Source: an uncultured Chloroflexia bacterium (GTDB taxonomy: Bacteria > Chloroflexota > Limnocylindria > QHBO01). From it: a stretch of 64,000 nt of DNA. This document shows, in pieces, positions 3,120-24,587 of this stretch (position 1 is the first letter of the stretch; each line of letters opens with the position of its first letter). A program made the translations under genes and the position numbers. The notes under the pieces were generated by a model, which ran no database searches, was not told where the DNA came from, and was given only the letters and a program-made list of their open reading frames with translations. Location of the stretch: positions 20,643-84,642 of the forward strand of contig CAWDYT010000008.1 of the NCBI GenBank assembly GCA_963806695.1, given 5' to 3'.

Positions 3120-3542
3120 ATGGCCCACGAATCGCGCCGGCTCGCCGGCATCATCCTCATCCTCGTTCCGGCGGTGGCCTTCGGTGGCGCCAGCCTGCTG
3201 TCGATGATCGTCGGCCAGGCGCCGGGCTACCTCGACAATCAGGTCCGGCAGGACCTGTGGCGGGCCGGGCACGCGCACGCGGGGATCATGCTGATCATCT
3301 CGCTCGTCCTGCTCCGCTACGTCGACGAGACGCCGTTGCGCAGCGGCTGGCTGTGGCTGGCTCGGCACGGCGCGCCGATCGCGGCGATCTTCATGCCGCT
3401 CGGGTTCTTCCTTTCGGTCCTGAGCCCGGAGACAACCGAGCCGAATGCCCTGATCGGGCTGGTGCCGATTGGTGGGCTGTTCCTGGTGGGCGCGGTCATC
3501 ACGACCGGGGTCGGGCTGCTGCGAGCGCCGGCCACTGCCTGA
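3120..3542 (+). CDS. Hypothetical integral membrane protein (about 4 TM)
   Basis: Four hydrophobic segments, WRAGHAHAG motif, SD AAGGAG. Confidence 0.75.
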   Translation: MAHESRRLAGIILILVPAVAFGGASLLSMIVGQAPGYLDNQVRQDLWRAGHAHAGIMLIISLVLLRYVDETPLRSGWLWLARHGAPIAAIFMPLGFFLSVLSPETTEPNALIGLVPIGGLFLVGAVITTGVGLLRAPATA

Positions 3543-3545
3543 GTG

Positions 3546-4031
3546 CTACCGGTGCAGCGAGTCCAGCTGGTCCGCGTGCTCCTCGAGGTGGCTCGCGATG
3601 AACTTCTCGACGATCTGCTCCACCGTCATCTCGCCGCGGACCGGGTGCATGCCCCGCAGCCGCCAGGTCTCGTCATCCCACGCGCGCACGGCGTCGTTGA
3701 CCTCGGCCAGCGAGGACTGCACGCGTTCCAACAGTGCCTGCGGGTCGGTGTGGCGGTCGCGCTCGATCGCCGCGAGGCGGCCCGCATCGGTCTTCACCCG
3801 CCCGAAGGGAACCGGCGAGTGCGTGGGTTGGGCGATCACCCGCTGCGCCTGCGCGAACCAGTACGCGGGAAACTCGGCGAGGTGCGCCCAGACCTGCCCC
3901 GCCTCCCAGCGCTCGTCGCCCCCTGGGTCGGGATCGGCGAGGCCGGACGGCAGCGGTCGCGACGCGTGCTCGGCCAGCCGGCGCTCGGCGTCAGACAGGC
4001 GGGCGACCAGGGCATCGACCGAGGCACTCAT
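3546..4031 (-). CDS. DinB/YfiT-like helical-bundle protein
   Basis: WEAGQVWAHLAEF...HPVRGEMTVEQIVEKFIASHLEEHADQL; ATGA overlap with the FAH gene. Confidence 0.7.
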   Translation of the reverse strand: MSASVDALVARLSDAERRLAEHASRPLPSGLADPDPGGDERWEAGQVWAHLAEFPAYWFAQAQRVIAQPTHSPVPFGRVKTDAGRLAAIERDRHTDPQALLERVQSSLAEVNDAVRAWDDETWRLRGMHPVRGEMTVEQIVEKFIASHLEEHADQLDSLHR

Positions 4032-5020
4032 CGGGACGGCCGCTCCACCACGTTCGCCGTCAGCTCGCCGAGGCGTTCGATCGCCAGGCTGACCGTGTCT
4101 CCGGGTTCGAGGTAGCGCTTCAGCCGTTCGTCCCGGATCTCCAGCAGACACCCCGTGCCAACGGTGCCCGATCCGAGGAGGTCTCCGGGTCGCAGACGGA
4201 CGTCGGCGCTGGCGCGCTCGACCATCTCGCCGAAGCTGAAGTGGGCGCTGGACCAGGTGCCGCGCGACAGCTCGTCCCCGTTCACGGTGGCAGTCATCGC
4301 AACATCGTAGCCCTTGCCCTTCCGTGCGTCGGCGAGCTCGTCCGGGGTGACCAGCCACGGGCCGATGGACGACGCGAAGTCCTTGCCCTTGGCCGGGCCG
4401 AGGCGGACCGTCGTCTCCTCGCGCTGGAGGTCGCGGGCCGACCAGTCATTGAGGACCATGTAGCCGCCGATCGCCTCCTCGCCGCGGCCTGCATCGAGGT
4501 CGCGCACCGGCGTGTCGATGAGCGCGGCGACCTCGAGCTCGTAGTCGAGCTCGCTCGATCCGCGCGGCGCCCACACGGGATCGCCCGGCCCTCGGATCTC
4601 GGACACGTTGCTGAAGTAGAAGATCGGCAGGCGGTACCACGCCTCCGGGATCTCCATGTCGCGTCGCTTCCACATCGTGCCGACGTGCTGCTCGAAGGCG
4701 TAGAAGTCGCGGAACGTGGGCGGCTGGAGGATCGGTGGGCCGAAGACCAGGTCCGGTGCGTCCATCGGCTCATCGGTGTCGGCGTCCAGCAGGTCCGCGA
4801 GTGCCTCGACGCGGAGGCCGTTGGCGAGGTGCGCGTCGAGCGTTGTGACCGGTTGCCGGAAGAGGGCGCTGTTGTGGGCGCGCGCGGGTTCGGCGGCAAC
4901 GAGGGCGCGGCGCGCCCCCTCGAGGTCGAGCCACCCGCCACCGTCCGTATCGAGCGCCGCGGCGAGGCGCCACGGCGTTCCGGCGGGGCCCGTCCGCTCC
5001 CGGATGTGAGCGATCTTCAT
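4028..5020 (-). CDS. Fumarylacetoacetate hydrolase family protein
   Basis: FRDFYAFEQH, LDYELEVAA, NDWSARDLQ, KGKDF, GSGTVGTGC. Confidence 0.9.
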   Translation of the reverse strand: MKIAHIRERTGPAGTPWRLAAALDTDGGGWLDLEGARRALVAAEPARAHNSALFRQPVTTLDAHLANGLRVEALADLLDADTDEPMDAPDLVFGPPILQPPTFRDFYAFEQHVGTMWKRRDMEIPEAWYRLPIFYFSNVSEIRGPGDPVWAPRGSSELDYELEVAALIDTPVRDLDAGRGEEAIGGYMVLNDWSARDLQREETTVRLGPAKGKDFASSIGPWLVTPDELADARKGKGYDVAMTATVNGDELSRGTWSSAHFSFGEMVERASADVRLRPGDLLGSGTVGTGCLLEIRDERLKRYLEPGDTVSLAIERLGELTANVVERPSR

Positions 5021-5059
5021 CGGCGTCTAAGTCTAGGGCGGCCGCTAGACTCGGGCGCG

Positions 5060-6139
5060 ATGCCGCCGCTCCCGCCCTCTCCGCTCGTCGCGTCCGACGC
5101 GCACCTCGATCACTCAGGGCTCATCGAGCTGGTCGGCGGTCTCGAGGTGCCGTGCTTCGAGTCGCCGGAACGGGCGGTCGTCATCCGGGAGGCATTGCTG
5201 GCCACCGGGGACTACGAGCTCGTCGCCCCCGAGTCCCATGGGCCGGACCCGATCGCGGCCGTGCACCAGCTGGAGCTCATCGACCTGGTCGAGCACGCAT
5301 GGGACGACGCGATGGCGGCCGGGCGCGATCCAGGGCGACCGCTGCTGCCCGACACGTTCCTGCTCCGCGAGTACGCCGGCCGCATGGCGCTGTCCGAGCT
5401 GCCGATCGAGCGCCACGACCGTCTCGGGGCCTACTGCTTCGACACCGCGACCCCGATCGTTGCCGGAACGGCGACTGCCGCGCGGGCGGCAGTCGACATC
5501 GGCCTGACCGCCCTCGATCTCGTGCTGGCCGGGGCGCCCGTGGCGTACGGTCTGTGCCGGCCGCCGGGCCATCATGCCGGGCGGAACCTCATCGGCGGCT
5601 ACTGCTTCTTCAACAACGCCGCCATCGTCGCCGAGTCGGTCCTGGCGCGCGGTGCGGAGCGCGTCGCGATCCTCGACGTCGACTTCCACCATGGGAATGG
5701 CACGCAGCAGATCTTCTGGGAGCGCGGCGACGTCCTGTACGTCAGCCTCCACGGGGATCCGCGTGGCATCTATCCGTACTTCTCCGGCTACGCCACGGAG
5801 CGCGGTGCCGAGGATGGCCTCGGCGCGACGTTGAACCTGCCGCTCGCGCCGGGAACCGATGGTGACGCGTACCTCGGCGCACTCGCCGAGGGTCTCGCTG
5901 TCATCAGCGACTTCGACGCCGATGCGCCGCTCGTGGTCTCGCTGGGATTCGACACCTACCACGCCGACCCGATCTGCAACCTCGCCCTGCAAACTCCCGA
6001 CTACGCGCGGATCGGAGCGGCCATCTCGACCCTCGGCATGCCGGTCGTTGCGCTCCAGGAAGGCGGCTATGCGGTGGACGCGCTCGGCGCGAACGCCGTC
6101 GCATTTCTCGATGCCGTGCGCGACGGCCTGGCCCCGTAG
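5060..6139 (+). CDS. Histone deacetylase family / acetylpolyamine amidohydrolase-like
   Basis: RPPGHHAG, GGYCFFNNAA, LDVDFHHGNGTQ, LQEGGY. Confidence 0.9.
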   Translation: MPPLPPSPLVASDAHLDHSGLIELVGGLEVPCFESPERAVVIREALLATGDYELVAPESHGPDPIAAVHQLELIDLVEHAWDDAMAAGRDPGRPLLPDTFLLREYAGRMALSELPIERHDRLGAYCFDTATPIVAGTATAARAAVDIGLTALDLVLAGAPVAYGLCRPPGHHAGRNLIGGYCFFNNAAIVAESVLARGAERVAILDVDFHHGNGTQQIFWERGDVLYVSLHGDPRGIYPYFSGYATERGAEDGLGATLNLPLAPGTDGDAYLGALAEGLAVISDFDADAPLVVSLGFDTYHADPICNLALQTPDYARIGAAISTLGMPVVALQEGGYAVDALGANAVAFLDAVRDGLAP

Positions 6140-6176
6140 AATTTCTTTACCCCGACCTCCTGGAGCACGGCATCGC

Positions 6177-7200
6177 GTGAAGCGCATCGGTTTCCTGTCC
6201 TTCGGCCATTGGTCCGACTCGCCCCACTCGCAGGTGCGGTCCGCGTCCGACGCGCTGCTCCAGTCGATCGAGCTGGCGGTCGCCGCCGAGGAGCTCGGGG
6301 CCGACGGCGCGTACTTCCGCGTCCACCACTTCGCCCGCCAGCTGGCGTCGCCGTTCCCGCTGCTGGCCGCTGTCGGCGCGCGGACGAGCCGGATCGAGAT
6401 GGGTACCGCGGTCATCGACATGCGCTACGAGAATTCGTTCTACATGGCCGAGGACGCCGGTGCGGCGGACGTCATCGCCGGCGGCCGCCTCCAGCTCGGA
6501 ATCAGCCGCGGCTCGCCGGAGCAGGTCATCGACGGGTATCGACACTTTGGCTATGTTCCGGCCGAGGGGGAGACCGATGCCGACATGGCTCGGCGCCACG
6601 CCCAGGGCTTCCTCGAGCTCCTGAAGGGCGAGGGCTTCGCCCAGCCGAATCCGAGGCCGATGTTCCCCAACCCGCCCGGACTGCTCCGGCTCGAGCCGTT
6701 CTCCGCGGGGTTACGCGAGCGAATCTGGTGGGGCGCCGCATCGACGGCCACGGCAGTGTGGGCTGCCGAGCTGGGCATGAACCTTCAGAGCTCGACCCTC
6801 GTGTTCGACGAGAGCGGTGAGCCACTGCACGTCCAACAGCGCAGGCAGATCGACGCGTACCGCGAGGCCTGGACCGCCGCCGGCCACGAGCGCGAGCCGC
6901 GCGTCTCGGTCAGCCGCAGCATCTTCGCCATCGTCGACGACCGCGACCGCACCTACTTCGGTCGCGGCGGACAGGAGCGAGACCAGATCGGCTACATCGA
7001 CGAGAACACCAAGGCGATCTTCGGTCGATCGTACGCCGCCGAGCCCGAGGTCCTCGTCAGGGAGCTGGCGGAGGACACCGCGATCGCGGCAGCCGATACG
7101 CTCCTGCTGACCGTGCCGAACCAGCTCGGCGTCGACTACAACGCCCACGCCATCGAGAGCATCCTGCGCGTACGTCGCGCCCGAGTTGGGCTGGCGCTGA
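6177..7200 (+). CDS. LLM-class flavin-dependent oxidoreductase (one +1 indel near 7170)
   Basis: GTG start, KRIGFLSFGHW, FRVHHFA, GRLQLGISRGSPE; removing one base near 7170 gives the ending ILRYVAPELGWR-stop at 7200. Confidence 0.85.
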
Positions 7201-7232
7201 CCGACCGACCGAATCGCCAGCCGAGGCAACAC

Positions 7233-7294
7233 TTGACAGACCTTGTACAGAGTGTGGTATCGTGGCGTCCAGACTATACAAACACTGGACGCCA
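7233..7294. promoter_or_regulatory. AT-rich promoter-like sequence and 10-bp inverted repeat between convergent genes
   Basis: TTGACA 7233-7238, TATCGT 7258-7263 (19-bp spacer); TGGCGTCCAG-N12-CTGGACGCCA 7263-7294. Confidence 0.45.
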
Positions 7295-7326
7295 TGCCTC
7301 GCCCGACCCCCTGTACCGATCGCCCG

Positions 7327-8307
7327 TCAGCCCTCCAGGGCCGGATCGTCGACGCGCGCGAGCCCGACGACGATCTGCCACAGCCGGCGGCGCTCCTCCC
7401 GGCTGACCCTGGTGAACGGAACCCGGTCGAACGGACGCTCCCGTCGATCGAGGAAGAACGCGCCGGATCGGCGATGTCCCGCCGGGTCGCAGGCCAGCCA
7501 GACGAGGGTGTCGACGCCCTCCGCGGGCGTGCGAAGGATGGGCTCGATCAGCTGCCGGAAGCCGGGAAGCGAGGCGGACAGCCCTGGCGTGTCGGCCCAA
7601 CCCGGGTGCATCGCGTTGAACGCGATGCCGCTGCCGCGCATGCGGCGCGCCCACTCGCGCATGAGCATCACCTGGGCCCGTTTGGCGCGTGCGTAGGCGA
7701 GAGTGCCGGAGAAGGGCTCGCCCTCGAATTGGAGGTCGTCGAGCCGCAGCCGCTGGGTGTACATGCCGCCCGAGCTCATGGCGATGACCCGGCCGGCCGG
7801 CGAAGCGCGCAGCAGGGGGAGCACGCCGGCGACGAGCGCGAACGGCCCGATCACCAGCACGGCCAGGGTTGCCTCGATTCCGTCGGGGCCCACGGAGCGC
7901 TCGGGGAAGATCGCCCCGGCGTTGTCGATGAGGACGTCGATGCGTGGCTCAGCCGCCGTGATGGCTTCAACGGCTTCGCGCACCGACGCCAGCGAGCCCA
8001 TATCGGCCACGACGGTGGTGAAGCGGCCCTCCCCGTGGCGGTCCGTGAGCTCGTCGCGCACCGTTTCCAGGCGTTCACGGCTGCGACCGACCAGCACGAT
8101 CCGCCCTCCGAGAGCGGCCAGCTCGTCCGCCGCCTGGCGACCCAGCCCGGAGGTCGGGCCGGTGAGCAGCACCGTCTGGCCGGCCAGCGCGTCGGGATCG
8201 GGACGACGCCAGGCGTGAAGGCGTCGGCGGGCGGCGATGCCGAGGCTCGTGAAACTCCCAACCACGGTGACCTCGAGCGCGTCGTCGAGCACCTCGTTCC
8301 AGCCCAT
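7327..8307 (-). CDS. Short-chain dehydrogenase/reductase
   Basis: TGPTSGLG, LIDNAGA, YARAK catalytic YxxxK, HPGWADTPG. Confidence 0.88.
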   Translation of the reverse strand: MGWNEVLDDALEVTVVGSFTSLGIAARRRLHAWRRPDPDALAGQTVLLTGPTSGLGRQAADELAALGGRIVLVGRSRERLETVRDELTDRHGEGRFTTVVADMGSLASVREAVEAITAAEPRIDVLIDNAGAIFPERSVGPDGIEATLAVLVIGPFALVAGVLPLLRASPAGRVIAMSSGGMYTQRLRLDDLQFEGEPFSGTLAYARAKRAQVMLMREWARRMRGSGIAFNAMHPGWADTPGLSASLPGFRQLIEPILRTPAEGVDTLVWLACDPAGHRRSGAFFLDRRERPFDRVPFTRVSREERRRLWQIVVGLARVDDPALEG

Positions 8308-8374
8308 CTCCACCTCCTGTCGCGCCGCCAGTCCGACGCATGCACATCTTGACCGCAACCGTACCGAGGACGAC

Positions 8375-8836
8375 ATGACCCGCTTGAACGAACGCATCGA
8401 AACCGCCCTTCCGATCGAGGAGGCCTTCGCCTATCTCGCCGATTTCGCCAACTCGCAGGAGTGGGACCCCGGCGTGGCCCGCGCGGAGCGCATCGGCTCC
8501 GAAGAGATCGGGGTCGGGACCCGCTTCCGACTCGGCGTCCGCCAGGGCGACCGGGTTGTGCCGATGGAGTACCGCATCACCGACTTCGATCGGCCTCGCC
8601 GGGTCGTGCTGGCCGGCTCTGGCTCCGCCATCAACGCCGTCGACGAGCTGCGCTTCGAGCGATCCGGCAACGGCACGATCGTCGACTACACCGCCGATAT
8701 CCGGCTCGGCGGCCTCCTGCGCCTCGTGCAGCCGTTCCTGAGCGGCACCTTCCGGCGCATCGCCGCCGACGCGTCGGGGGGCATCCGGAGCACGCTCGCG
8801 GCCCGTGCCGCGGCGCACGGAACGGACCGGCCATGA
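8375..8836 (+). CDS. SRPBCC/polyketide-cyclase family protein
   Basis: [34 protein letters not shown]. Confidence 0.85.
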
Positions 8837-12955: not shown

Positions 12956-13030
12956 CCGACCAAGCGCGCCAGCGCGTTTCGGGCGAGAATGCGCCCCCGC
13001 CTTCCCACACACCAGCACAGGTTCACCGTC

Positions 13031-14365
13031 ATGACTGTCAGCGACTCCGAGCGGCGCCCGGCGCCCGCCAGTGCCGCCATCCTGATTGCCGTTCTCCTGC
13101 TCTTCGGGGCGGCCACGTTCGTGGCCGGCCTGGCCGTCGGCTCGAACGGCGGCGTGGGCCAGGCGGACCCATCGGCCGATCCGTCGGTCAGCGTGCCGTC
13201 CGAGGTCGCCACGCCTGAGGGAACGCCGGGACCGACGCCGGTCCTCGAGACGGTGACCTGCACCGAGCCGTCCGAGGCCTTCGCCGTGCTGTGCGAGGTG
13301 TACGCCGACATCAAGGGCGAGTACGTCGACGAGATCAGCGACGAGGACCTCGTCGATGGCGCGGTGCGCGGCATGGTCGAGTACGGCCTCGAGGATCCGT
13401 ACTCCGGCTATCTTCCGCCGGAGCAGTACGGCTCCGCGCTGGACGACCTGTCCGGCAGCTTCTCTGGCATCGGCGCGGAGGTGGGCATGGAGAACCTGGC
13501 CGATCCCGACGACCTGGCCGCGTGCACAGTTGTGACGGAGACGTGCGTGATGGTCATCGTCGCGCCGCTCGACGACTCGCCGGCGGAGCAGGCGGGACTG
13601 CGGCCGGGCGACCAGATCCTGGCGGTCGACGGGACCCCGACGCTGGGCGAGAGCATCAGCTCGCTCGTCTACCAGGTGCGAGGCGAGTCGGGCACCGATG
13701 TGACGCTCACGATCCGTCGGGACGACGAGGAGTTCGACGTGACGATCACCCGAGCGGTGATCGAGCTCGAAGAGGTGACCTCCGAGCTGCTGCAGGACGG
13801 CATCGGCTACGTCCGCCTCACTTCGTTCACCGATCGCGCACCGGGCCTGTTCTCCGAAGCCGTCTCGTCGCTCCTCCAGCAGGGCGCCACCGACATCGTG
13901 TTCGACCTGCGGTCGAATCCCGGCGGCTACATCGTGGCCGCGCAGGGCGTCGCGTCGCAGTTCGTCGGGTCCGGCGAGCTGCTGTTCACGGTCGAGTCGG
14001 GCGAGGACGTCGACGAGTGGCGCGCGGAGGACGGCGTGGCCCAGGACCCCTCGATCGAGGTCGTCGTGCTCGTCGACGGCGGATCGGCATCGGCCTCCGA
14101 GATCGTGGCAGCCGCGCTCCAGGAGCACGAGCGCGCGACGATCCTCGGGGAGGACACGTTCGGGAAGAACACGGTCCAGATCTGGAACGACCTGCCCAAT
14201 GGCGGCGGGCTGCGCCTGACCACCGACCGGTGGTTCACTCCCGAGCACAACTCGGTGGCGCCCGACGGTGTGCAACCCGACGTCGAGGTCGCCGGCCCGG
14301 AGGATCCGGCCTCGGAGGACGACCCACAGCTGGACCGGGCGGTCGAGGTCCTGCTCGAGGACTGA
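13031..14365 (+). CDS. S41 family C-terminal processing peptidase (PDZ plus protease)
   Basis: N-terminal TM, DPYSGYL, SPAEQAGLRPGD, DLRSNPGG, SASASEIVA, TFGK. Confidence 0.92.
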   Translation: MTVSDSERRPAPASAAILIAVLLLFGAATFVAGLAVGSNGGVGQADPSADPSVSVPSEVATPEGTPGPTPVLETVTCTEPSEAFAVLCEVYADIKGEYVDEISDEDLVDGAVRGMVEYGLEDPYSGYLPPEQYGSALDDLSGSFSGIGAEVGMENLADPDDLAACTVVTETCVMVIVAPLDDSPAEQAGLRPGDQILAVDGTPTLGESISSLVYQVRGESGTDVTLTIRRDDEEFDVTITRAVIELEEVTSELLQDGIGYVRLTSFTDRAPGLFSEAVSSLLQQGATDIVFDLRSNPGGYIVAAQGVASQFVGSGELLFTVESGEDVDEWRAEDGVAQDPSIEVVVLVDGGSASASEIVAAALQEHERATILGEDTFGKNTVQIWNDLPNGGGLRLTTDRWFTPEHNSVAPDGVQPDVEVAGPEDPASEDDPQLDRAVEVLLED

Positions 14366-14374
14366 GCCGGCCGG

Positions 14375-15346
14375 CTACCCGGCGAGAATCCGCAGGAACA
14401 GGTCGGGATCGACGTTCCCGCCGGAGATGACGACCACCCGGGCGTCGTCGTCTTCGCCGCGCGGCACGCTGCCGGCAAGGTGCGCCCCCATCGCCGCCGC
14501 ACCCGATGGCTCCACGACCAGGCGCGCGCGCGTGGCGAGCTGCCGCATGGCATCGGCCATCTCGTCCTCGGTGACGGTGACGATCTCGTTCATGAAGCGC
14601 CGCAGGTGCTCGAAGGGAAGCGTCCCGAGCGAGTTCGTGCGCAGGCCGTCGGCCATGGTGCGCCCGGTCTGCTCCGCGGTCCAGGTGACCAGCACACCCC
14701 GCTCCAGCGACTCCTTGGCATCGGCCGCCAGCTCCGGCTCGACTCCGACGATCCGGGCGCCGGGGGCCAGCGCTCGCACGGCGGTCGCCACCCCGCCGGA
14801 CAGGCCACCGCCCGACACCGGCACGAGGACGCTGGTGACCGACGGCAGGTCCTCCACGATCTCGAGGCCGCACGTCCCCTGGCCGGCGATGATGGCCGGG
14901 TCGTCGTACGGCTCGACCATCACCAGGCCGCGCTGCGCGACCAGCCGGAGCGCGAGCGCGTGGCGCTCCTCGGAGTCCATCCCGGTGAACTGGATCTCGG
15001 CACCGTCGCGCCGGACGCCCTCGATCTTCACGCGCGGCGCGTCGCGCGGCATGCAGATCACGGCGGGCGCGCCCAGCAGACGCGCGGCCCGCGCCACGGC
15101 CTGGGCATGGTTGCCCGACGAGTAGGTCACGACGCCACGGGAGCGCTCCTCGTCGGTCAGCGACGCAATCTTGTTGTAGGCGCCGCGCATCTTGAACGCG
15201 CCGACCGGCTGGAGGGACTCGGGCTTCAGCCAGGTCGTGTCGTCCCAGCGCAGCAGCGGCGTACGCGTCGCCACGCCGCGAACGCGATCGGCGGCTTCCC
15301 GAATCTCCTCGATGGTGACGATGTGCGGCTCGGCGCTGACCTCCAT
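14375..15346 (-). CDS. PLP-dependent threonine/serine dehydratase
   Basis: KPESLQPVGAFKMRGA, SSGNHAQ, VPVSGGGL, VISGGN. Confidence 0.92.
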   Translation of the reverse strand: MEVSAEPHIVTIEEIREAADRVRGVATRTPLLRWDDTTWLKPESLQPVGAFKMRGAYNKIASLTDEERSRGVVTYSSGNHAQAVARAARLLGAPAVICMPRDAPRVKIEGVRRDGAEIQFTGMDSEERHALALRLVAQRGLVMVEPYDDPAIIAGQGTCGLEIVEDLPSVTSVLVPVSGGGLSGGVATAVRALAPGARIVGVEPELAADAKESLERGVLVTWTAEQTGRTMADGLRTNSLGTLPFEHLRRFMNEIVTVTEDEMADAMRQLATRARLVVEPSGAAAMGAHLAGSVPRGEDDDARVVVISGGNVDPDLFLRILAG

Positions 15347-15370: not shown

Positions 15371-15811
15371 TCACGGGATCGGCAGCTCCTCGCAGCCCAG
15401 CTCGACGAACACCCGCTCCTCGTTCCCGAGGGCCGGGTTGACGTCGTCGGCTGGGACGAGACGGTCGCAGCGGTAGCGTGACCATCGCTGCGAGCCGAAC
15501 CGGTCGCGCGTGGCGTCGACTAAGAGCTCGACCGTCCCGTTCTCGTGGACCCGGTAGTAGCGCGTGACCGGGTCGCCCTCGTCGGTTGGCCGGGTGCTGA
15601 TGAGCTCCGCGCCGTCACCGTTCTGGAACGCGCGGAGCAGGCACGTCCGGGCATCGACGTTGTGAGGCAGCCCGTTCGCCTCGATGGACTCGACGCCGCA
15701 CGATGCGAGCGGCAACCGGTTGGTGATCCACTCAGGCTCGTCGGTCGACAAGGGGCTCGTGCACCCGGCCAGCAGTCCGAGGATCGCGACGAGGACGGCG
15801 CGCTGACGCAT
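15371..15811 (-). CDS. Hypothetical lipoprotein
   Basis: Signal peptide with lipobox LAGC; TDEGDPV and DRF motifs reminiscent of DUF4362 (unverified). Confidence 0.7.
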
Positions 15812-15814
15812 CGG

Positions 15815-17257
15815 TCAGTAGGCGCGAGCCCAGGTCGCGAGCTCGGTGCCAGGCTTGCCGCAGTGCATGCATGCGGTGCCGGGGTCGCGCACCTCGAGCG
15901 GCAGGAAGCGGATCGTCGCCTTCGTCTTCGCGCTGATCTCCGCCTCGCAGGCCGCGTCGCCGCACCAGGCGCCGACCCAGAACCCGCCCTCTGCCTCGAC
16001 GCCCGTCGCGAATGCGTCGAACGAGGCGATCTCGTGGGTGTTGGCGTCGCGGAAGGCGAGCGCGTCGTCGTAGCAGCGCCCGCTGGACCGATGCGAGCCG
16101 CGCTGCCATGCCGCTCACGACCTCGGCCATCGACAGCTCCACCTTGTCGCCGCCCTGACGGCTGACGAGCCACCGCCCGGCCGGCGGCAACGTCCCGCGG
16201 CCCGAGCTCGATCGCGCACCGGCACGCCCTTGAGCTCCCACTCTGCGAACTTGTATCCGGGGCGATGCTGGTCGCGGTCATCGAGCCGTACGCGAATGCC
16301 GTTCGCAGCGAGGTCGTCGCGCACTCGCTCGGCCACCGCCGAGCACCGCGCGACCGCTCCTCGTCGGTCCGATGGATCGGCACGATCACGACCTGGATCG
16401 GCGCGACCGCCGGAGGAAGGCGAAGGCCGGCATCGTCGCCGTGGGCCATGATCGTGCCCCCGACCAGGCGCGTGGAGAAGCCCCACGACGTGGCCCACGC
16501 GTGCTCGAGCTCGCCGCCGCGTTCGAGGAACGTCACGTCGTAGGCCTTCGCGAAGTTCTGCCCGAGGAAGTGCGAGGTGCCCGCACTGCAGCGCCTTCCC
16601 GTCGCGCATCAGGCCCTCGATGCGTGTAGGTCTCGACGGCTCCCGGGAATCGCTCGCCCGCGGCTCTTGCGCCCGGTCGACCGGGATCGCGAGCACGTCC
16701 TCCGCGACCTCGCGGTAGACCTCGAGCATCTGGAGCGCCTCCTCGTGCGCCTCGTCCGCGGTCGCGTGGGCCGTGTGGCCCTCCTGCCAGAGGAACTCGG
16801 TCGTGCGGAGGAACAGCCGCGTGCGCATCTCCCAGCGCACGACGTTCGCCCATTGGTTGTAGAGCAGCGGCAGGTCGCGATAGCTCTGGATCCAGTCGCG
16901 TAGGTCGACCAGATGATCGACTCCGACGTCGGCCGGATGACGAGCGGCTCCTCGAGCTCCTCGCCCGCCGCCGTGCGTCACGACCGCCACCTGCGGCGCG
17001 AAGCCCTCGACGTGATCGGCCTCCCTGTCGAGGAGGCTCATCGGGATGAGCAGCGGGAAGTAGACGTTCTCGTGGCCCGTCGCCTTGAAGCGATCGTCGA
17101 GCGCGCGCTGGGTGTGCTCCCAGATCGCATAGCCGTGGGGCCTGATGATCATCGAGCCCTTGGCCGGGCCGTGCTCGGCCAGCTCGGCCCGCTTCACGAC
17201 CTCGACGTACCAGCCCGGGAAGTCGTCTGCCTGCCTCGGCAGCCTGGCGGTGCTCAT
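15815..17257 (-). CDS. proS: Proline--tRNA ligase, archaeal/eukaryote-like type (multiple indels)
   Basis: [59 protein letters not shown]-terminal Cys-rich end ...ARAY-stop. Confidence 0.92.
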
Positions 17258-17290
17258 GGAGCGCCGATGCTAGCCGATGGCACGTCGTCC

Positions 17291-19751
17291 CTAGGCGGCG
17301 GTGCCGTCAGCGGCCGCCGGACGCAGGGCTCCTCGTCGGGCCCGCTTGGGCCTCGCCGTTCGCGCGGCCCAGCGATGCGCGGTCGCTAGGCCCTCCATGC
17401 CGGCCTCCACCTCCGTGGCGTCCACGGGCCGTGAGAAGAACCACCCCTGCCCGTACGTGCTGCCCAGCACGCGCATCCGCTCCGCCTGGTCCTCGGTCTC
17501 GATCCCCTCGGCCACCGTCGCGATGCCGAGCGACTCGCCCAGCGCCACGATCGCCCCGGCCAGCGCCGGCCGGTCGCGCGTCCCCTCGGCGCCCTGCACG
17601 AACTCGGCGGCGATCTTCAGCGCGTCGACCGGGAACTGGCGCAGGTGGCTGAGCGAGAAGTATCCGGTGCCGAAGTCGTCGATCACGACCCGCGACCCCG
17701 AGCGTCGCGCAGGCGCCTCGAGGGTCGCCACCGTCGCGGTGGTCGCCTTGATGAGCGCGGTCTCGGTGAGCTCGAGGATGAGGCGGGTCGGCTCCAGGCC
17801 GGCCCAGGCGAGGGCCTCCTCGACCGCGCCGACGAACCCCGGCTGCTGGATCTCGCGCGCCGACACGTTGACGCACAGGAAGAGCTCGCGGCGGGGTCAG
17901 GCCGAGGCGCCTGCCAGGCCGACGGCCCGCTCGCAGGCCTCTCCGCAGGACCCAGCGACCGATCGGCAGGATCGCGCCGTTCTCCTCGGCGATCTCGATG
18001 AACTCGCCCGGCGGGACGAGGCCGCGCTCGGGGTGCTGCCAGCGGACGAGGGCTTCGACGCCGGCGATGCGGCCCGGTCTCGAGCGTCGACGATCGGCTG
18101 GTAGACGAGCCGCAGCTGGTCGAGGTCGACGGCGCTGCTGCAGCTCGGCGCCCAGCTCGTGCCGGGCGCGGATCGGCTGCGTGCATGCCCGGGTCGAAGA
18201 CCGCGAACCCGGCCTTGCCGTTGGCCTTGGCCATGTACATCGCCACGTCGGCGTTGCGCACCATCTCCTGCGCGCTCCGCGCGTCGCGTGCGCTGGCGAT
18301 GCCGATGCTGGCGGACGATCGTGATGGTGTGGTCGCCGATGACGTACGGCACGCGCAGGTCGCGGACGAGCCGCTCGGCCATCGACCGTGCGCGGCGCGA
18401 GCTCCCGGTCGTCCTCGGTGAGGATGGCGAACTCGTCGCCGCCCAGCCGGGCCACGAGGTCGCCCTCGCGGACGAGCGCCGCGGATCCGGTCGGTGACCG
18501 CGATCAGCAGCGCGTCGCCGGCGGCGTGGCCGAGGGTGTCGTTGATGACCTTGAAGTCGTCGAGGTCGATGAACAGGACGGCGGTGAGCCCGTCCCGGTC
18601 GCCGCGTTGGCCTCGAGCGTGCTCTCCAGGTCTGCCTGGAACATGTGCCGGTTGGCGGCGCCGGTCAGCGAGTCGCGCTCGGCCAGGTCTCTGGACGTGG
18701 CGCAGCAGGACGGCGTTGCGCAGGTTGAGGGCCGCCACGGCCGGCGAACTGGCCGAGGACCGATGCCACGCGGCGCTCGACGCCGAACACGGTGCGCGAC
18801 GCGATGCTCGACCACGATCGCGCCGACCGGCAGTCCGTCGGCCATGAGTGGCGCGACCAGCAGGTTCCGCGCATCGGGCATGACGGCAGCCAGCAACGGG
18901 TTGGCGTCGGCCTCGACGCGCTTGACCGGCAGCAGCTCGCGGCGCTGCCACGCGCGCCGCACGATCGCGTCGACCGGCGCGGGATCCGTCCACTCGGTCG
19001 TCCCGCGGGACGCCAGCACGATGAGCTGGTCAGCGGCCGCCCCGAGCACGACGCCCCGCCGGAACCCGAACCGCGCCGCCAGCCCGTCGAGCACGACACG
19101 GGCCTGGAGCACCGGATCGGCGACGTCGTCGAGCCGCGCGCCGACATCGACCAGCGCCTGGAGGTCGGCGCGACGCTGCCGGAGCTCCCGCTCGTTCATC
19201 GCCGAGAAGATCGAGGTCGCGATCGCGAACAGCCAGAAGCTGGTCACGTTCAGCACCGGCATCCGATCGAAGACCACGGCACTGCCCGGCACCACGTCGA
19301 CCGGCGGGACGAGCCCGGCGGCCTGCGCGTACAGCACCACGAACAGCAGCAGCGAGTGCCACAGCGCGATCTTCAGGCCCGTGCGGTACGACGCGAGCAA
19401 CGACACCGCCACCAGGTGCAGGTAGATGAGGAATCGGATCGGGCTCTGGGTGGCGCCGGTCACATACATCGCGTACGCGAGGTAGACGCCGTCAGCCAGG
19501 AGCAGGGCATTGAGCACGGCGAAGCTGAATGGACCGGCCCGCCTCCGCGCAACCTCGGCAAGGATCGCGGCCAGCATGTACACAGCGGTGGCACCGGCAA
19601 GCGCCGAGATCGGCACGCCAAGCGACTCGGGGCGGGCGAAGCTCCACGCCATCACCACGGCTCCCATGGCCATGCGCAGGACCAGCAGATGGCCCATGCG
19701 GTCGCTCAGCGCGGTGTAGTCCTCGGGAGTGACGTGTCGCCGCCGGATCAC
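17291..19751 (-). CDS. Membrane GAF-GGDEF-EAL diguanylate cyclase/phosphodiesterase (multiple indels)
   Basis: N-terminal TM helices, GAF-like segment, [52 protein letters not shown] across frames. Confidence 0.88.
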
Positions 19752-21132
19752 AGGTCGACCTCCGGCTCGAATCGGACGACGGTCTCCACCACGTGCTGGG
19801 GCGCCATGCGCAGCTTCGGATCGCGGCGATCGATGTGACCCTGCACGGCGATGAAGGCCAGCACCGCCACGGTAAGGGCAATCGGGAAGGTGAATTGCCC
19901 GGCCACGGCGACCGCGGCCTCAGGCTGCACCACCGCGGTCACCCCGGTGATGGCAGCCGCCAGGACCTGGGCGACGACGCCGGTCGGCGCGAGCGGGTGC
20001 GCCTCGATGGGCGGCACCACGGTGATCGGCTGGCCGGCCGGGGCCGCCGGCTCAGGGCGGGCCCCGGCCGCTGTCTCGAGGGAGGCTGGTCCACGACGCT
20101 CCTCGCCGAAACCGCTCTCGATCGACTCGTCGACGATCGGCGGCAGGGCCATCGGCGGCTCGCCCATGGAGGGATCATTCGCCGGTTCCTGCACCGGCTC
20201 GGCCGGATCGGGCTCTGCACCGGCGCGGATCCCGGGTTCGGCTGCGGTTCCTGCACCGGCTCGGCCGGGCCGGGCTCCTGCACCGGCGCGGACCCCGGAT
20301 TCGGCTGCGGTTCCTGCACCGGTCCTGCCGGACCAGAGGGCGTGGGTCCGACCTGAGCCGGGGTTGGATCGGGCCTCGGGACCGGGGTTGGATCCGGCGT
20401 GGGCACTGGAGTCGGGTCCGGCGTGGGCACTGGAGTCGGGTCCGGCGTGGGCACAGGAGTCGGGTCCGGCGTCGGCACCGGGGTCGGATCCGGCGTGGGC
20501 ACCGGAGTCGGGTCCGGCGTGGGCACCGGAGTCGGGTCCGGCGTGGGCACAGGAGTCGGGTCCGGCGTGGGCACCGGAGTCGGGTCCGGCGTGGGCACCG
20601 GAGTCGGGTCGGGAGTGGGGGTCGGGCTCGGCGAGGACGTTGGATCGGTCGTTGCCACCCGCTCGACGGTGTCGGAGTGATCGTCCCATTCCGGCGCCGC
20701 CACCTCCTCGTCGCAGCTGAAGACGGAGCCGCTCACGACCGCGCAGACGTGGTCCATGCCCGCATTGGCGGCGACGTAGCTCACGGAACAGGTCCCGGAC
20801 GTCCCCGTCCAGCACTGCAGGTCGGGGCTGTTTCCTGGGCTGTTCGGGCTGTTCGGGCTCGACGGCGTGAAGAACCACCGCACGTGGGTGTTGCTGTCGC
20901 TTCCGACCGTCGGGCTGCCGGAGGCGTCGCTGACCTCGGCGGTCAGGACGACGGTCGACCCGATGGCGACCTGCAGCTGCTCGGGATCCACGTTGACACG
21001 CGTTCCGGGGGCAGCGAGGGAAGGGGCGGCAACGAGCAGGAGCATCGACCAGGCGAGGGCAACGGCCGTGACGGACGCCATCGGGCGGCGTCCGATGCGG
21101 AAGTGGCGCCGGCGGCCTGGTGTCTGGTTCAT
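19748..21132 (-). CDS. Secreted/surface protein: signal peptide, Cys-containing beta domain, Pro/Thr stalk, C-terminal TM with DRRDPKL tail (one indel near 20215)
   Basis: N-part from ORF 19939-22386 and C-part from ORF 19748-20878 join at a 1-nt deletion in a 63-bp repeat; stop overlaps the GTG of the GGDEF-EAL gene. Confidence 0.75.
20184..20322 (-). repeat. About 2.2 copies of a 63-bp coding repeat ([21 protein letters not shown])
   Basis: GGTTCCTGCACCGG starts at 20184, 20246 and 20309 (periods 62 and 63). Confidence 0.85.
20377..20616 (-). repeat. 10 tandem 24-bp coding repeats (PTPDPTPV)
   Basis: Unit GGGCACCGGAGTCGGGTCCGGCGT with mostly synonymous variants; a degenerate 11th copy is adjacent. 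Confidence 0.95.
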
Positions 21133-21310
21133 GCTCGGGTCATCGATGTCGCTCCGATCAGGGGGCATTCCTGAAGGTTGATGAACGGAACGATGCCGCG
21201 ACGAGGCCGGCGCGGCGAGGGGCGTAATCGTCACCCGTGGTACGCCCCGGGGCGGGCGCGCACCACCGCGATATCGGCCTCGTCGAACGAGTGTGCAGTC
21301 GGGTGCAGTA

Positions 21311-21331
21311 CCCCGTAGGACTCGAGTGCCG
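21311..21331. promoter_or_regulatory. DosR/NarL-like box, copy 1
   Basis: CCCCGTAGGACTCGAGTGCCG; 16/21 identical to the reverse complement of 40816-40836. Confidence 0.4.
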
Positions 21332-21376
21332 CGACCCGATGAGGTCCGGATCGGACGGGTGCGGTTAGGCCCGGAC

Positions 21377-22505
21377 TCAGTCGTCCGCGCGCACGATGCG
21401 GTAGATGAACCCGGCCTTGTCGTCGCTGACGTAGAGCGCGCCATCGGACCCGACCGCCAGGCCCGCGGGGCGGCCGAGAGCCCCATCGGCGCCGTCGGGC
21501 AGGAAGCCGGTTGCGAACGGCTCGGGGTCGCCTGCCGGCTCGCCGTCCCATGGCAGCCACCACAGCGCGTAGCCGACCTTGACCGACGAGTTCCACGATC
21601 CGTGGAGGGCAACCACGAGGTGATCCTCCCAGCCGACCAGGTCGAGCGGAGCCGTGTGGGCCGGGAACGGTCGCCGCCGGATCGCGCGACGCCGTCGCAC
21701 GCGGTCGCATCCGTCCCGAATTCGGGGTCGCGCAGGGAGCCCGCGTGGCAGCGCGGCCATCCGGCATCGGCACCGTCGACGAGCTCGTACATCGTCTCCG
21801 GCGGCTCGTCGTCGCCCAGCAGGTCGCGTCCCATGTTCGTCGCCCACGCGCGGCCGGTGGCAGGGTCCACCCAGACGCCCACGGCGTTGCGCAGCCCGAC
21901 CATCCACGGTCGCAGCTCGCCGTCCTCGACGACCTGCACCGTGGCGCGGCGCTCGTCCTCCTCGTCGCAGACGTTGCAGGACGAGCCGATGGACAGCAGC
22001 AGACGGCCGTCGGGCAGCACCGCCACGGTCTTGGTGCTGTGGCCGCCGGTCGGGAGCCCGCTGGCCACGGTCCGCCGATCCGTCTCCTCGAGGCCGTCGA
22101 GCACGACCTCGTACAGGGCGGCCTCGCCGGCCACGAGCAGCCGCCCATCCTCGGTCAGCGCGATGTCGTGGGCCGATCCGTAGCCGGAGCCGACCTCGAC
22201 GACCTCGTCGGCCACACCGTCCGCATCGGCGTCCGGCAGCGCCACGATGCGGTCCGCACCGCGCTCTGCGACGAGCAGCGTGCCGTCGGGCGCGACCGCC
22301 ATGAAGCGCGGGCCTGCGAAGGCCCTCGGCGAAGACCGACGCCCGAAAGCCGTCCGGCAGGCGAAGCTCGGCGCGGCCTCCCGCACCCGGCGTCGAAGTT
22401 CACGCCCATGAACGGAGCCAGCAGCGGTCGCAGGATCCAGCCGACGCCGAAGAGCAGTGCGAACGCACCGATCGCGAACAGGGCCAGGTTCCGAACGCGG
22501 CGCAT
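21377..22505 (-). CDS. PQQ-dependent sugar/sorbosone dehydrogenase family beta-propeller (indels)
   Basis: N-terminal TM; [58 protein letters not shown]. Confidence 0.85.
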
Positions 22506-22568
22506 CGGTGGATGCTAGGCCGGCCCGGACTGGGCATCGGCGGTGGACGACGCTGCGAGAATGCGGCG

Positions 22569-24587
<2,019 letters not shown>

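Follow-up and report, generated by a model that had tools for sequence, protein, structure and literature searches.

How do signals reach c-di-GMP enzymes whose input domains are buried in the membrane? This has been a long-standing gap, and most of the inputs are unknown. The question is raised by two adjacent genes on the minus strand at positions 17291-21132 of the window, a 64,000-nucleotide stretch of DNA from an uncultured Chloroflexia bacterium. One gene encodes an anchored surface protein and the other a membrane enzyme with a six-helix (6TM) input domain followed by GAF, GGDEF and EAL domains. All the described elements were located in the window (Table 1). The pair recurs in two phyla and has the appearance of a surface receptor made of two proteins and so far undescribed; no description was found in searchable papers.

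Table 1. Location of the gene pair and its elements in the window
Feature	Position	Strand	Basis and remarks
Anchored surface-protein gene	19748..21132	-	ORFs, sequence, frameshift-aware alignment to orthologues
N-terminal signal peptide	21013..21132	-	Read from sequence
Ig-like beta-sandwich head, four conserved Cys	20638..21021	-	AlphaFold2, Foldseek, alignment
Pro/Thr stalk, 10 tandem 24-nt units encoding DPTPVPTP	20381..20619	-	Tandem Repeats Finder
Pro/Gln/Glu-rich 63-nt repeat, 2.4 copies	20183..20334	-	Tandem Repeats Finder; holds frameshift at 20215
C-terminal anchor module	19751..19990	-	Alignments, profile search
GTGA stop/start overlap	19748..19751	-	Sequence; 4-nt overlap shared by 28/31 pairs
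6TM-GAF-GGDEF-EAL enzyme gene	17291..19751	-	Broken by at least 15 single-base insertions
Six-helix membrane input domain	19197..19751	-	Hydropathy, conservation by topology, PF25323 profile
GAF domain	18745..19106	-	Pfam near threshold, AlphaFold2 model
GGDEF domain (approximate limits)	18214..18678	-	Pfam, motif reading
EAL domain (approximate limits)	17432..18146	-	Pfam, residue reading
Frame-breaking insertion cluster, enzyme gene	17888..18800	-	Frameshift-aware alignment, sequence contexts

The two proteins and their reading frames

The start of the surface-protein gene was placed at the ATG at 21132 (an alternative ATG lies at 21168). After one frame correction the reconstructed protein has 461 residues, and its intact orthologues have 427-494. 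The signal peptide consists of a basic N-region, a hydrophobic core of 18 residues and then APG, and the pattern RR..hydrophobic..PSxAxPG is kept in the orthologues. The head was modelled by AlphaFold2 as an all-beta domain (pLDDT 84.7, pTM 0.80), for which Foldseek returned intimin D0-D1, macroglobulin MG, Ig V and SbsC domains; Pfam gave a weak match to Big_1. Four cysteine residues of the head (C70, C78, C93 and C103) are invariant in the orthologue alignment, and the length of the Pro/Thr stalk differs among orthologues. The protein ends in a hydrophobic helix and a tail, closing on a stretch of 31 residues. The layout proposed in an earlier note on this DNA, namely a signal peptide, a Cys-containing beta head, a Pro/Thr stalk, a TM helix and a charged tail, was thus recovered both in the window and in the intact orthologues.

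Two other identities of the surface protein were rejected. A WSC-domain wall sensor (PF01822) is contradicted by the lack of a Pfam WSC match and by the Ig-like sandwich of the head. Type IV pilins carry a class III signal peptide with a G/FTLIE motif and an N-terminal TM helix, whereas the present protein carries its TM helix at the C-terminus and its signal peptide is of the cleavable Sec type.

The TGA of the surface-protein gene (19750-19748) overlaps the GTG of the enzyme gene (19751-19749), as the earlier note had read it, and an SD-like GGAGG lies within the last codons of the anchor gene. The enzyme orthologues are 815-845 residues long. The input domain has six hydrophobic segments, with the N-terminus predicted to be inside and with short outer loops. 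It had been regarded as unrecognised; nevertheless, in 11 of the 12 diverse members PF25323 (6TM_PilS) was the top family, each time below the cut-off (best E 5e-6). The scores were 18-30 bits at best against a gathering score of 27, the window copy giving 18.1 bits (E 0.0023), and some homologues carry a precomputed PF25323 match. Judged from these profiles, the input domain is probably a distant member of the PilS-like 6TM family, with a match below the Pfam gathering score. Conservation in the domain is highest in the cytoplasmic YRTGLK loop, which joins TM4 to TM5 (0.92), and in the NERELR helix (0.76). On the outer side, the short TM3-TM4 loop (TGG..SP) scores 0.71 and the other two loops 0.42-0.45. 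Three residues, D87, H112 and S121, are invariant in the domain. The AlphaFold2 model of the 6TM part was of moderate quality (pLDDT 54-77 over residues 110-200), and no solved structure was matched by the modelled part.

The conserved NERELRQRR helix joins TM6 to the GAF domain. Pfam scores for GAF (PF01590) were 21.4-22.5 bits around a cut-off of 22.4, and the AlphaFold2 model of the domain matched solved GAF domains with a probability of 1.0 and a target-normalised TM-score of 0.55-0.62. The GGDEF motif is found at 18429-18443 (RLGGDEF), and an RxxD I-site (REGD) lies five residues ahead of it; Pfam GGDEF (PF00990, cut-off 23.8) scored 141 bits in an intact orthologue and 62.7 bits in the window fragment. 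The EAL motif is found at 18048-18056, and EALVRW, VNVS, ELTE, IDDFGTG, LKI, EGIE and GQG are all readable in the window copy. Pfam EAL (PF00563, cut-off 31.3) scored 234 bits in an orthologue and 124 and 46 bits in the window fragments. The GAF domain and the intact GGDEF and EAL motifs noticed earlier were thus all found again, and both the cyclase domain, with its I-site, and the phosphodiesterase domain look active by their motifs.

In the earlier note the frames had been crossed silently. Neither gene is a single open frame in the window. The surface-protein gene contains one frame change, at which a G is missing at 20215 in comparison with the adjacent copy of its own 63-nt repeat. In the enzyme gene the frame changes at least 15 times from 18800 to 17888, almost always by a single extra base. 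Frameshift-aware alignment showed 11 breaks of the same type in the neighbouring proS gene, which is essential and syntenic; the PQQ sugar dehydrogenase gene has four, and the reading frame of hppD also slips in and out. The source genome is a MAG of 23 contigs with an estimated completeness of 57%, and the orthologues of the pair in sister genomes are intact. These facts suggest that the frameshifts in both genes are most likely assembly errors. If the frameshifts were real, this particular copy could be dead, and the breaks in the two genes would be those of a decaying pseudogene pair. We consider this improbable, since an essential gene is broken in a similar manner together with two other genes, amino-acid identity to the orthologues is high on either side of every break with no stop-rich decay, and the combination of few contigs with so low a completeness is also seen in other long-read MAGs of the genus.

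Conservation and pairing of the anchor and the enzyme

The C-terminal anchor is composed of an outer juxtamembrane helix, the TM helix (approximately 19841-19918), DRRDPKL (19811-19831) and a conserved cytoplasmic end of 20 residues. In the consensus, the TM helix opens with F/I-P and is followed on the cytoplasmic side by Q-x-x-[IV]-D-R-R-D-P-K-L-x-x-A-P...E..L.F, of which P, D-R-R-D-P-K-L and A-P are invariant across phyla in the alignment. The outer juxtamembrane helix is conserved within the class. The anchor profile was found in 1,749 protein clusters (50% identity), always at the extreme C-terminus, and the outer domains of these clusters are otherwise unrelated. The Pro/Thr stalk with the Cys-containing head is lineage-specific; elsewhere the same anchor bears Ig arrays, TasA-like domains or low-complexity sequence, and Big_13 arrays among the outer domains reach 2,725 residues. 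The alignments show that the anchor and the membrane domain are the conserved parts and that the outer domain is variable.

No curated family covering the anchor was found in Pfam or NCBIfam searches. A C-terminal sorting signal of the LPXTG/sortase or PEP-CTERM/exosortase type was rejected: there is one anchor per Limnocylindria genome and one to three in Actinomycetes, 14-55 residues follow the basic motif, and no NCBIfam or Pfam sorting-signal model matches the anchor.

Among 401 genomes of the class Limnocylindria, the anchor profile was found in 71 and the 6TM profile in 74. In all 71 anchor genomes the 6TM gene is the next gene on the same strand, 2-124 nt away, with one pair per genome. 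A second sample came from the class to which G406 belongs, the genome that carries the Frankiales MAG locus L057; we infer the class name, Actinomycetes. In this sample the anchor occurs in 37 of 401 genomes, and the 6TM gene lies directly downstream in each of the 30 anchor loci fetched. The actinobacterial partner enzymes stop after GGDEF, with no EAL domain; GGEEF is present in all 28 evaluable loci, about 225 residues after the 6TM domain. A pattern scan of 185,579 species gave 24 evaluable loci, all paired. When the context of nine diverse anchor proteins was inspected, the 6TM gene was downstream in seven, upstream in one and absent in one, the anchor gene L063, which lies on a 2-kb contig and has no enzyme gene in the following 0.8 kb. 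The preferential adjacency of DRRDPKL-tail proteins to this enzyme family, on which the earlier proposal depended, was therefore borne out. The proposed translational coupling is also conserved, as judged from the 4-nt overlap. The pairing is far beyond chance by co-occurrence statistics that ignore phylogeny.

The flanking genes vary by lineage (hppD/proS, argCJBD or clpB), and two pairs stand in tandem on one contig; the pair thus moves and duplicates as a unit. Extra c-di-GMP phosphodiesterase genes occur in some loci. The data support the view that the two genes form a dedicated pair. What adjacency and coupling establish is co-function, not contact.

How the anchor may address the enzyme

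We lean towards a reading in which docking of the anchor on the 6TM domain governs the c-di-GMP output. Here we infer the contact and its surfaces, and likewise the direction of signalling, from outside to inside, and the kind of stimulus. The two genes would encode a dedicated two-protein transmembrane receptor. The surface protein would be exported and held in the membrane by its C-terminal anchor, with the Ig-like head on a Pro/Thr stalk that may be long enough to span the wall of a single-membrane cell. The enzyme would be made in a fixed ratio to the anchor protein through the overlapping stop and start codons, and would be almost wholly without parts outside the membrane, its six-helix bundle leading to GAF, GGDEF and EAL. 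The TM helix and tail of the anchor would pack on the six-helix bundle and on its most conserved cytoplasmic elements, the candidate contact surfaces being the YRTGLK loop and the NERELRQRR helix that leaves TM6. A change of state of the outer protein, such as binding, pulling, clustering or loss, would then be relayed by TM6 and GAF and would shift the balance of c-di-GMP synthesis and breakdown.

The closest analogues of the pair are PilA-PilS and PilO-SadC, not LapA/LapD. In Pseudomonas aeruginosa, the six TM segments of PilS bind the single-pass pilin PilA directly, according to PMC6058289, which cites Kilmury and Burrows 2016. The present pair shares with it a predicted input domain of six TM segments with hardly any outer loops, and a single-pass partner, the contact here being a proposal. 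In contrast to PilS, the output is GAF-GGDEF(-EAL) in place of a histidine kinase, translational coupling links the two genes, the partner is anchored at its C-terminus with neither a class III signal peptide nor FTLIE, and the PF25323 match is below the cut-off. For the cyclase SadC, binding of PilO to its TM domain has been described (bioRxiv 10.1101/2020.10.17.343988). In PilO-SadC and MotC-SadC of P. aeruginosa, as proposed here, a bitopic protein of a surface-sensing apparatus regulates a membrane diguanylate cyclase via its TM domain, a likeness of layout that need not imply homology; the SadC partners, however, are parts of large machines encoded elsewhere, whereas the present partner is dedicated, adjacent and marked by a signature anchor. 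The TM helix of Caulobacter PilA raises c-di-GMP through PleC-PleD, with sensing placed in the periplasmic domain of PleC (PMC7196804). There too the TM helix of a surface-structure subunit serves as the signal, but indirectly, via a kinase and a response-regulator cyclase that have no counterpart here.

The earlier note had compared the pair in concept with LapA/LapD. LapD is catalytically inactive and serves as a c-di-GMP receptor; it carries a HAMP domain together with a periplasmic domain that binds LapG, and it depends on the LapG protease and on a T1SS adhesin. The LapA-LapG-LapD system of Pseudomonas fluorescens resembles the present pair in that an adhesin is functionally linked to a membrane GGDEF-EAL protein. 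Here, however, there is no HAMP domain, large outer loop, LapG or T1SS adhesin, the GGDEF and EAL motifs are intact, and the score for the NCBIfam LapD equivalog is 130 bits, where the cut-off is 1020. LapA/LapD is therefore a poor analogue, and a LapD-type receptor was rejected on the same grounds together with the absence of a protease gene from the conserved unit.

As for the catalytic core, the soluble GAF-GGDEF(-EAL) enzymes of Actinobacteria, among them mycobacterial DcpA/MSDGC-1, are similar, a likeness that does not imply orthology. Streptomyces CdgE is given as a GAF-GGDEF protein lacking TM segments (PMC6205966, PMC7911125), in which it differs from the present enzyme, and no anchored partner is described. 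Outside bacteria, the Limnocylindria protein recalls the yeast wall-stress sensors Wsc1 and Mid2 in having a signal peptide, a small Cys head, a long stalk of the Pro/Ser/Thr type, one TM helix and a short tail; in yeast, the short cytoplasmic tail recruits a signalling enzyme. Kingdom and downstream pathway differ, no WSC domain is present here, and the outer domains of other lineages are quite different.

It is also conceivable that the 6TM domain counts membrane-resident anchor, as PilS gauges inner-membrane pilin via TM segments (PMC6058289), and adjusts c-di-GMP when the anchor is depleted by, for example, shedding, extraction or incorporation into a wall structure, the outer state not being transmitted. 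The PilS-like input domain, the effect of the Caulobacter PilA helix via PleC-PleD (PMC7196804), and outer domains that are exchangeable and sometimes mere low-complexity sequence would all fit a signal that needs the anchor alone. On the other hand, coupling fixes the ratio of synthesis, which is odd for gauging the amount of one protein; a processing or shedding site is not evident, and the outer juxtamembrane helix is conserved too, within the class. We regard this as unlikely. About equally unlikely is the reverse direction, following LapD-type logic, in which the c-di-GMP state of the enzyme acts via the anchor on the exposure, clustering or release of the surface protein. The RxxD I-site and EAL domain, the adhesin-like nature of many partners (such as the longest Big_13 arrays), a conserved cytoplasmic tail of 25-30 residues that could serve as receiver, and the additional phosphodiesterase genes at some loci speak for it. 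However, the conserved unit includes neither a protease nor another effector, the features that define LapD are missing, and the plain GGEEF cyclases of the actinobacterial pairs suit an output enzyme better than a receptor.

Binding is not proven by adjacency and coupling alone, and one anchor gene, L063, has no enzyme neighbour. The anchor might then be simply an efficient membrane anchor, with the enzyme co-transcribed for regulatory convenience and no contact between the two. This is improbable, because across two phyla the anchor stays invariant and everything outside it changes, Limnocylindria genomes carry a single copy that is always next to the same enzyme family, and the pair stays together despite changing flanks and duplicates as a pair. 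A plain anchor, moreover, would not need the conserved DRRDPKL..AP..E..L.F peptide. Finally, the order of motif, TM helix and basic cluster recalls C-terminal sorting signals, and with the three invariant residues of the 6TM domain it could suggest an intramembrane enzyme that cleaves or sorts the anchor by an LPXTG- or PEP-CTERM-like signal. Sorting systems usually serve several substrates whereas there is one per genome here, the anchor extends well beyond the basic cluster, and the 6TM domain matches a sensor family and no protease family; such a function is very hard to credit. Docking of the anchor on the 6TM domain stays our preferred reading.

Implications for c-di-GMP signalling

For one large family, of approximately 1,750 anchor clusters, the pair would be a compact genetic answer to the question of input: the input would be the membrane anchor of the partner, the outer domain being freely exchangeable. 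It would also provide a sequence code that can be tested, with DRRDPKL on the anchor side and YRTGLK/NERELR on the enzyme side. The principle of PilS, in which a six-helix bundle reads a single-pass helix, would be extended past pilins and kinases. In Chloroflexota and Actinomycetota, two phyla whose surface sensing is little understood, surface proteins would be tied to c-di-GMP. Since a cultured carrier of the pair, Motilibacter deserti, exists, the idea is open to bench testing.

A wider reading can be offered tentatively. It is possible that single-membrane bacteria of soil and freshwater share an undescribed modular class of surface receptors, in which an interchangeable outer domain, a universal adaptor and a PilS-like 6TM-GAF-GGDEF enzyme convert surface load into c-di-GMP. 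The carriers would be Limnocylindria, Actinomycetes, Acidimicrobiia and probably Thermoleophilia. If this is true, the adaptor would consist of F/I-P, the TM helix, a Q followed by 14 residues, and then E..L.F, and the cytoplasmic tail peptide may be a ligand of the GAF domain. An Ig head on a stalk of the glycosylated type, an adhesin of 2,700 residues or a TasA-like domain would be the outer plug-ins. Yeast Wsc1 has been described as a mechanosensor (PMC9024836, PMC2885430). Contact or mechanical load would in this class be turned directly into c-di-GMP, as a bacterial counterpart of mechanosensing of the Wsc1 or integrin type.

Pairing of the anchored protein with a membrane c-di-GMP enzyme

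According to the earlier note, surface proteins ending in a TM helix and a DRRDPKL tail (hereafter the anchor) should preferentially adjoin one family of membrane GGDEF-EAL enzymes. We ran two profiles, one for the anchor (A2) and one for the six-TM input domain of the enzyme (A3, hereafter 6TM), on the same 401 class-level genomes of Limnocylindria. The anchor was found in 71 and 6TM in 74 of them, each as a single copy; these genomes belong to two families and 18-19 genera. In 71 of the 71 genomes with an anchor, the 6TM match followed the anchor match on the same strand, 2-124 nt away, and the expected adjacency was thus borne out. The co-occurrence gave a Fisher p of 6e-76 without correction for phylogeny. 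The three 6TM-only matches in this class were weak or divergent.

A pattern scan with the anchor motif, derived from a six-member alignment and covering 185,579 species with one genome apiece, returned 26 loci, nine of them from Actinomycetota MAGs (Acidimicrobiales, Frankiales, Mycobacteriales, Catenuloplanes). The 6TM signature lay about 650 nt past the motif in all of the 24 loci with enough downstream DNA. The Actinomycetes sample comprised 401 genomes of the class, its name being inferred, of the genome that holds a Frankiales MAG locus (L057). The anchor was present in 37 of these 401 genomes; 6TM was directly downstream in 30 of 30 fetched loci, and GGEEF followed about 225 residues beyond 6TM in 28 of 28 evaluable loci. 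In Motilibacter deserti (GCA_011250635.1, locus L099), a carrier that is in culture, the gene for an anchored protein of 420 aa (LDDRDPKL; 5702-6964) lies 36 nt before that for a 6TM-GAF-GGDEF protein of 555 aa (7001-8668). All the sampled partner enzymes end in GGDEF, to which those of Limnocylindria add EAL. A kinase as the output part was not seen in the 71, 30 and 24 loci above, in nine further anchor loci whose gene context was examined, or among 240 listed homologues.

The GTGA overlap between the stop and start codons of the two genes, as described in the earlier note, is present in the window sequence. Among 31 pairs, the geometry was NTGA in 28, TGATG in one and a gap of 9-12 nt in two, and an SD-like GGAGG sits inside the final codons of the anchor gene. 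In the final five codons (e.g. window 19751-19765; loci L033-L058), it lies within the codons of EEQL, or of GGAPA in Actinomycetes. Since the GGAGG is embedded in conserved C-terminal codons, part of the conservation of the protein end may be a nucleotide-level constraint.

The gene order in the same genus is hppD, PQQ dehydrogenase, surface protein, enzyme, proS, a threonine-dehydratase-like gene and an S41 peptidase gene. The genes flanking the pair differ by lineage (proS/hppD, argCJBD, clpB). One JGI contig (3300078173, locus L066) carries two anchor/6TM-GGDEF pairs in tandem at 3501-8156 (see table), where the pair is duplicated as a unit. No natural fusion of the surface protein and the enzyme was seen. 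The adjacency, the stop/start geometry, the changing flanks and the tandem copy indicate that the pair behaves as a unit. The two proteins are made from coupled reading frames and are co-inherited in two phyla.

Several loci depart from the common layout. In actinobacterial loci, an extra GGDEF-HD-GYP gene overlaps the cyclase gene by 4 nt (L062, 5524-8231) and an EAL gene lies upstream (L065, 177-1157); these separate c-di-GMP phosphodiesterase genes parallel the fused EAL of the Limnocylindria enzyme. On the JGI contig 3300047160, which encodes the anchor-bearing protein P0222, the order is reversed, with a 6TM_PilS-GGDEF gene directly upstream of the anchored protein; small genes follow, including one with a weak WxL-type peptidoglycan-binding match. 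The sole anchor gene seen without an adjoining enzyme gene is on a 2-kb contig whose sample carries the label human metagenome (L063, 1-2016), where it is followed by a convergent, tentatively DUF559-like ORF. Two contigs recorded as Steroidobacteraceae and Candidatus Binatia (L036 and L043) carry pairs 73-80% identical to the Limnocylindria proteins, which points to mis-binning or to errors in the taxonomic labels.

Coordinates of the pair and its neighbours in the window, and of the tandem pairs
Feature	Position	Strand	Remarks
Surface-protein gene	ATG 21132 (or ATG 21168) to TGA 19750-19748	minus	ORF/sequence
Enzyme gene	GTG 19751-19749 to TAG 17293-17291	minus	ORF/sequence
proS	15700-17257		Directly downstream of pair; essential gene; 11 single-base breaks, of the kind seen in the pair
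PQQ sugar dehydrogenase gene	21231-22505		Upstream of pair; 4 single-base breaks
hppD	about 23400-24587		Several single-base breaks
L066, pair 1	anchor 3501-5207; enzyme 5243-6805		
L066, pair 2	anchor 6907-7923; 6TM gene start 7920		

Structure of the two proteins

In intact orthologues, the surface protein begins with a signal peptide ending in PSxA|xPG. The head, some 120 residues long, has four invariant Cys and was modelled by AlphaFold2 as an Ig-like sandwich (pLDDT 84.7, pTM 0.80). This model matched intimin D0-D1, macroglobulin, Ig V and S-layer SbsC domains in Foldseek; in Pfam, the head gave weak Big_1 matches and nothing else. The Pro/Thr stalk varies in length among orthologues (10 x DPTPVPTP in the window copy), and a Pro/Ala/Glu segment is also variable. 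The last 80 residues are strongly conserved (...[54 protein letters not shown]...ET.V.F..EEQL), and no Pfam or NCBIfam model covering the anchor was found.

Among 1.84 billion representative proteins, a cross-phylum anchor profile of 52 positions matched 1,749 clusters with E <= 1e-3, of which 570 reached E <= 1e-10. Its match was always at the extreme C-terminus, with 14-55 residues past DPKL, in proteins ranging from fragments up to 2,725 aa. The Pro at the TM start, D-R-R-D-P-K-L and A-P are invariant across phyla and are followed by an E..L.F element. The outer parts are mutually unrelated and include the Ig head with a stalk of the window protein, Big_13/Ig arrays, a putative TasA/camelysin-like domain, and Gly/Ser/Asp-rich low complexity. 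In an Actinomycetes subfamily (L093, L095, L098, L099), the N-terminal domain has the pattern ...DASGPLF...RCL.L.Y...GSGG.FG.C.GF.G....GTL and, judged by eye, resembles TasA/camelysin-type secreted proteins. Source annotations go no further than "hypothetical protein" and "diguanylate cyclase (GGDEF)-like".

The enzyme has six hydrophobic segments with predicted outer loops of 8-18 residues. Because its N-terminus, TM2-3 loop and TM4-5 loop are basic, the GAF, GGDEF and EAL domains are placed in the cytoplasm. A conserved helix, [12 protein letters not shown], exits TM6. The sequence score of the GAF domain was borderline, and its fold was confirmed by a structure model match. The GGDEF domain (141 bits) has the GGDEF motif and the RxxD I-site, and the EAL domain (234 bits) has every catalytic position.

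The membrane domain had been taken as unrecognised. PF25323, the Pfam PilS-like 6TM family, was the top Pfam match in 11 of 12 diverse members; all the matches were below the curated cut-off. Many homologues carry PF25323 as precomputed annotation. In a fold search with the 6TM-GAF model, GAF domains were the sole matches and the membrane part had none. The input domain would be PilS-like on a sub-threshold match, with a membrane model of moderate confidence. Conserved positions of 6TM are in TM4 and on the cytoplasmic face, with column identities of 0.92 for YRTGLK and 0.76 for both NERELR and TM4; among the three outer loops, the values are 0.42-0.45 for two and 0.71 for the other (TGG..SP). 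Selection is concentrated on the anchor and on TM4 and the cytoplasmic face of the bundle. One member of the pair is secreted and held by its C-terminal anchor; the other, a membrane c-di-GMP enzyme, lacks an outer sensor of its own.

Frame breaks in the window copy

Both genes of the pair are broken in the window (71% G+C), which comes from a Candidatus Limnocylindria MAG of 2.14 Mb in 23 contigs with a completeness score of 57%. A frameshift-aware aligner was used, with the intact orthologue of a sister genome as reference for the enzyme gene. This gene contains at least 15 frame changes, all within 18800-17888; 14 are single extra bases, and the alignment showed no residue loss around any of the changes. 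One frame correction suffices for the surface-protein gene: at 20215 the N-terminal frame stops with ...GSAPVQ and, from the same base, the C-terminal frame reads EPDPAEPVQ. Compared with the copy of the 63-nt repeat that comes just before in this gene, a G is absent here. The reconstructed protein has 461 aa, as against 427-494 aa in orthologues. No near-identical intact copy of it was present in the protein collection, where the best match covered 39% of the queried region at 81% identity.

Single-base indels, 30 or more in number, break every gene in about 9 kb of the window (15520-24587); they are patchy, and most are insertions lying outside homopolymers. The two genes at 12,989-15,346 are intact, as are both genes of the pair in same-genus genomes. 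Judging from this sequence pattern, the breaks very probably represent patchy consensus error in a long-read MAG, and decay of the genes, the essential proS among those broken, is improbable.

Possible mode of action and related systems

Three published cases are precedents for the mode of action proposed below. PilA is bound by PilS via six TM segments (PMC6058289). In the cyclase SadC, the TM domain is the part that PilO binds (bioRxiv 10.1101/2020.10.17.343988), and in Caulobacter the TM helix of a pilin raises c-di-GMP (PMC7196804). The head-stalk-TM-tail layout of the Limnocylindria surface protein is like that of the yeast wall mechanosensor Wsc1, by analogy only (PMC9024836). Memberships in the LapA/LapD, WSC, pilin and sorting-signal groups were each tested and rejected, and Streptomyces CdgE, listed as a soluble GAF-GGDEF protein, was set aside as a characterised relative.

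The anchor helix and tail may dock onto the six-helix bundle; the partner's state would then be passed on, by way of TM6, the NERELR helix and the GAF domain, to the balance of GGDEF and EAL. It is rather unlikely that the bundle purely senses the pool of anchor, and control in the opposite direction, from inside out onto the surface protein, seems equally so. Co-expression of the two proteins without contact is less likely still, and a processing role for the six-helix bundle is very remote. Docking of the anchor onto the bundle, with relay to the catalytic domains, is the reading we prefer.

Full-text literature gave nothing on Limnocylindria c-di-GMP, on PilS-like domains with GGDEF, or on single-pass accessory partners of diguanylate cyclases. 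It is known in principle that partner proteins regulate membrane cyclases and that six helices can sense a single-pass helix. A partner that is dedicated to its enzyme, is translationally coupled to it and joins a signature anchor to exchangeable outer domains seems not to have been described.
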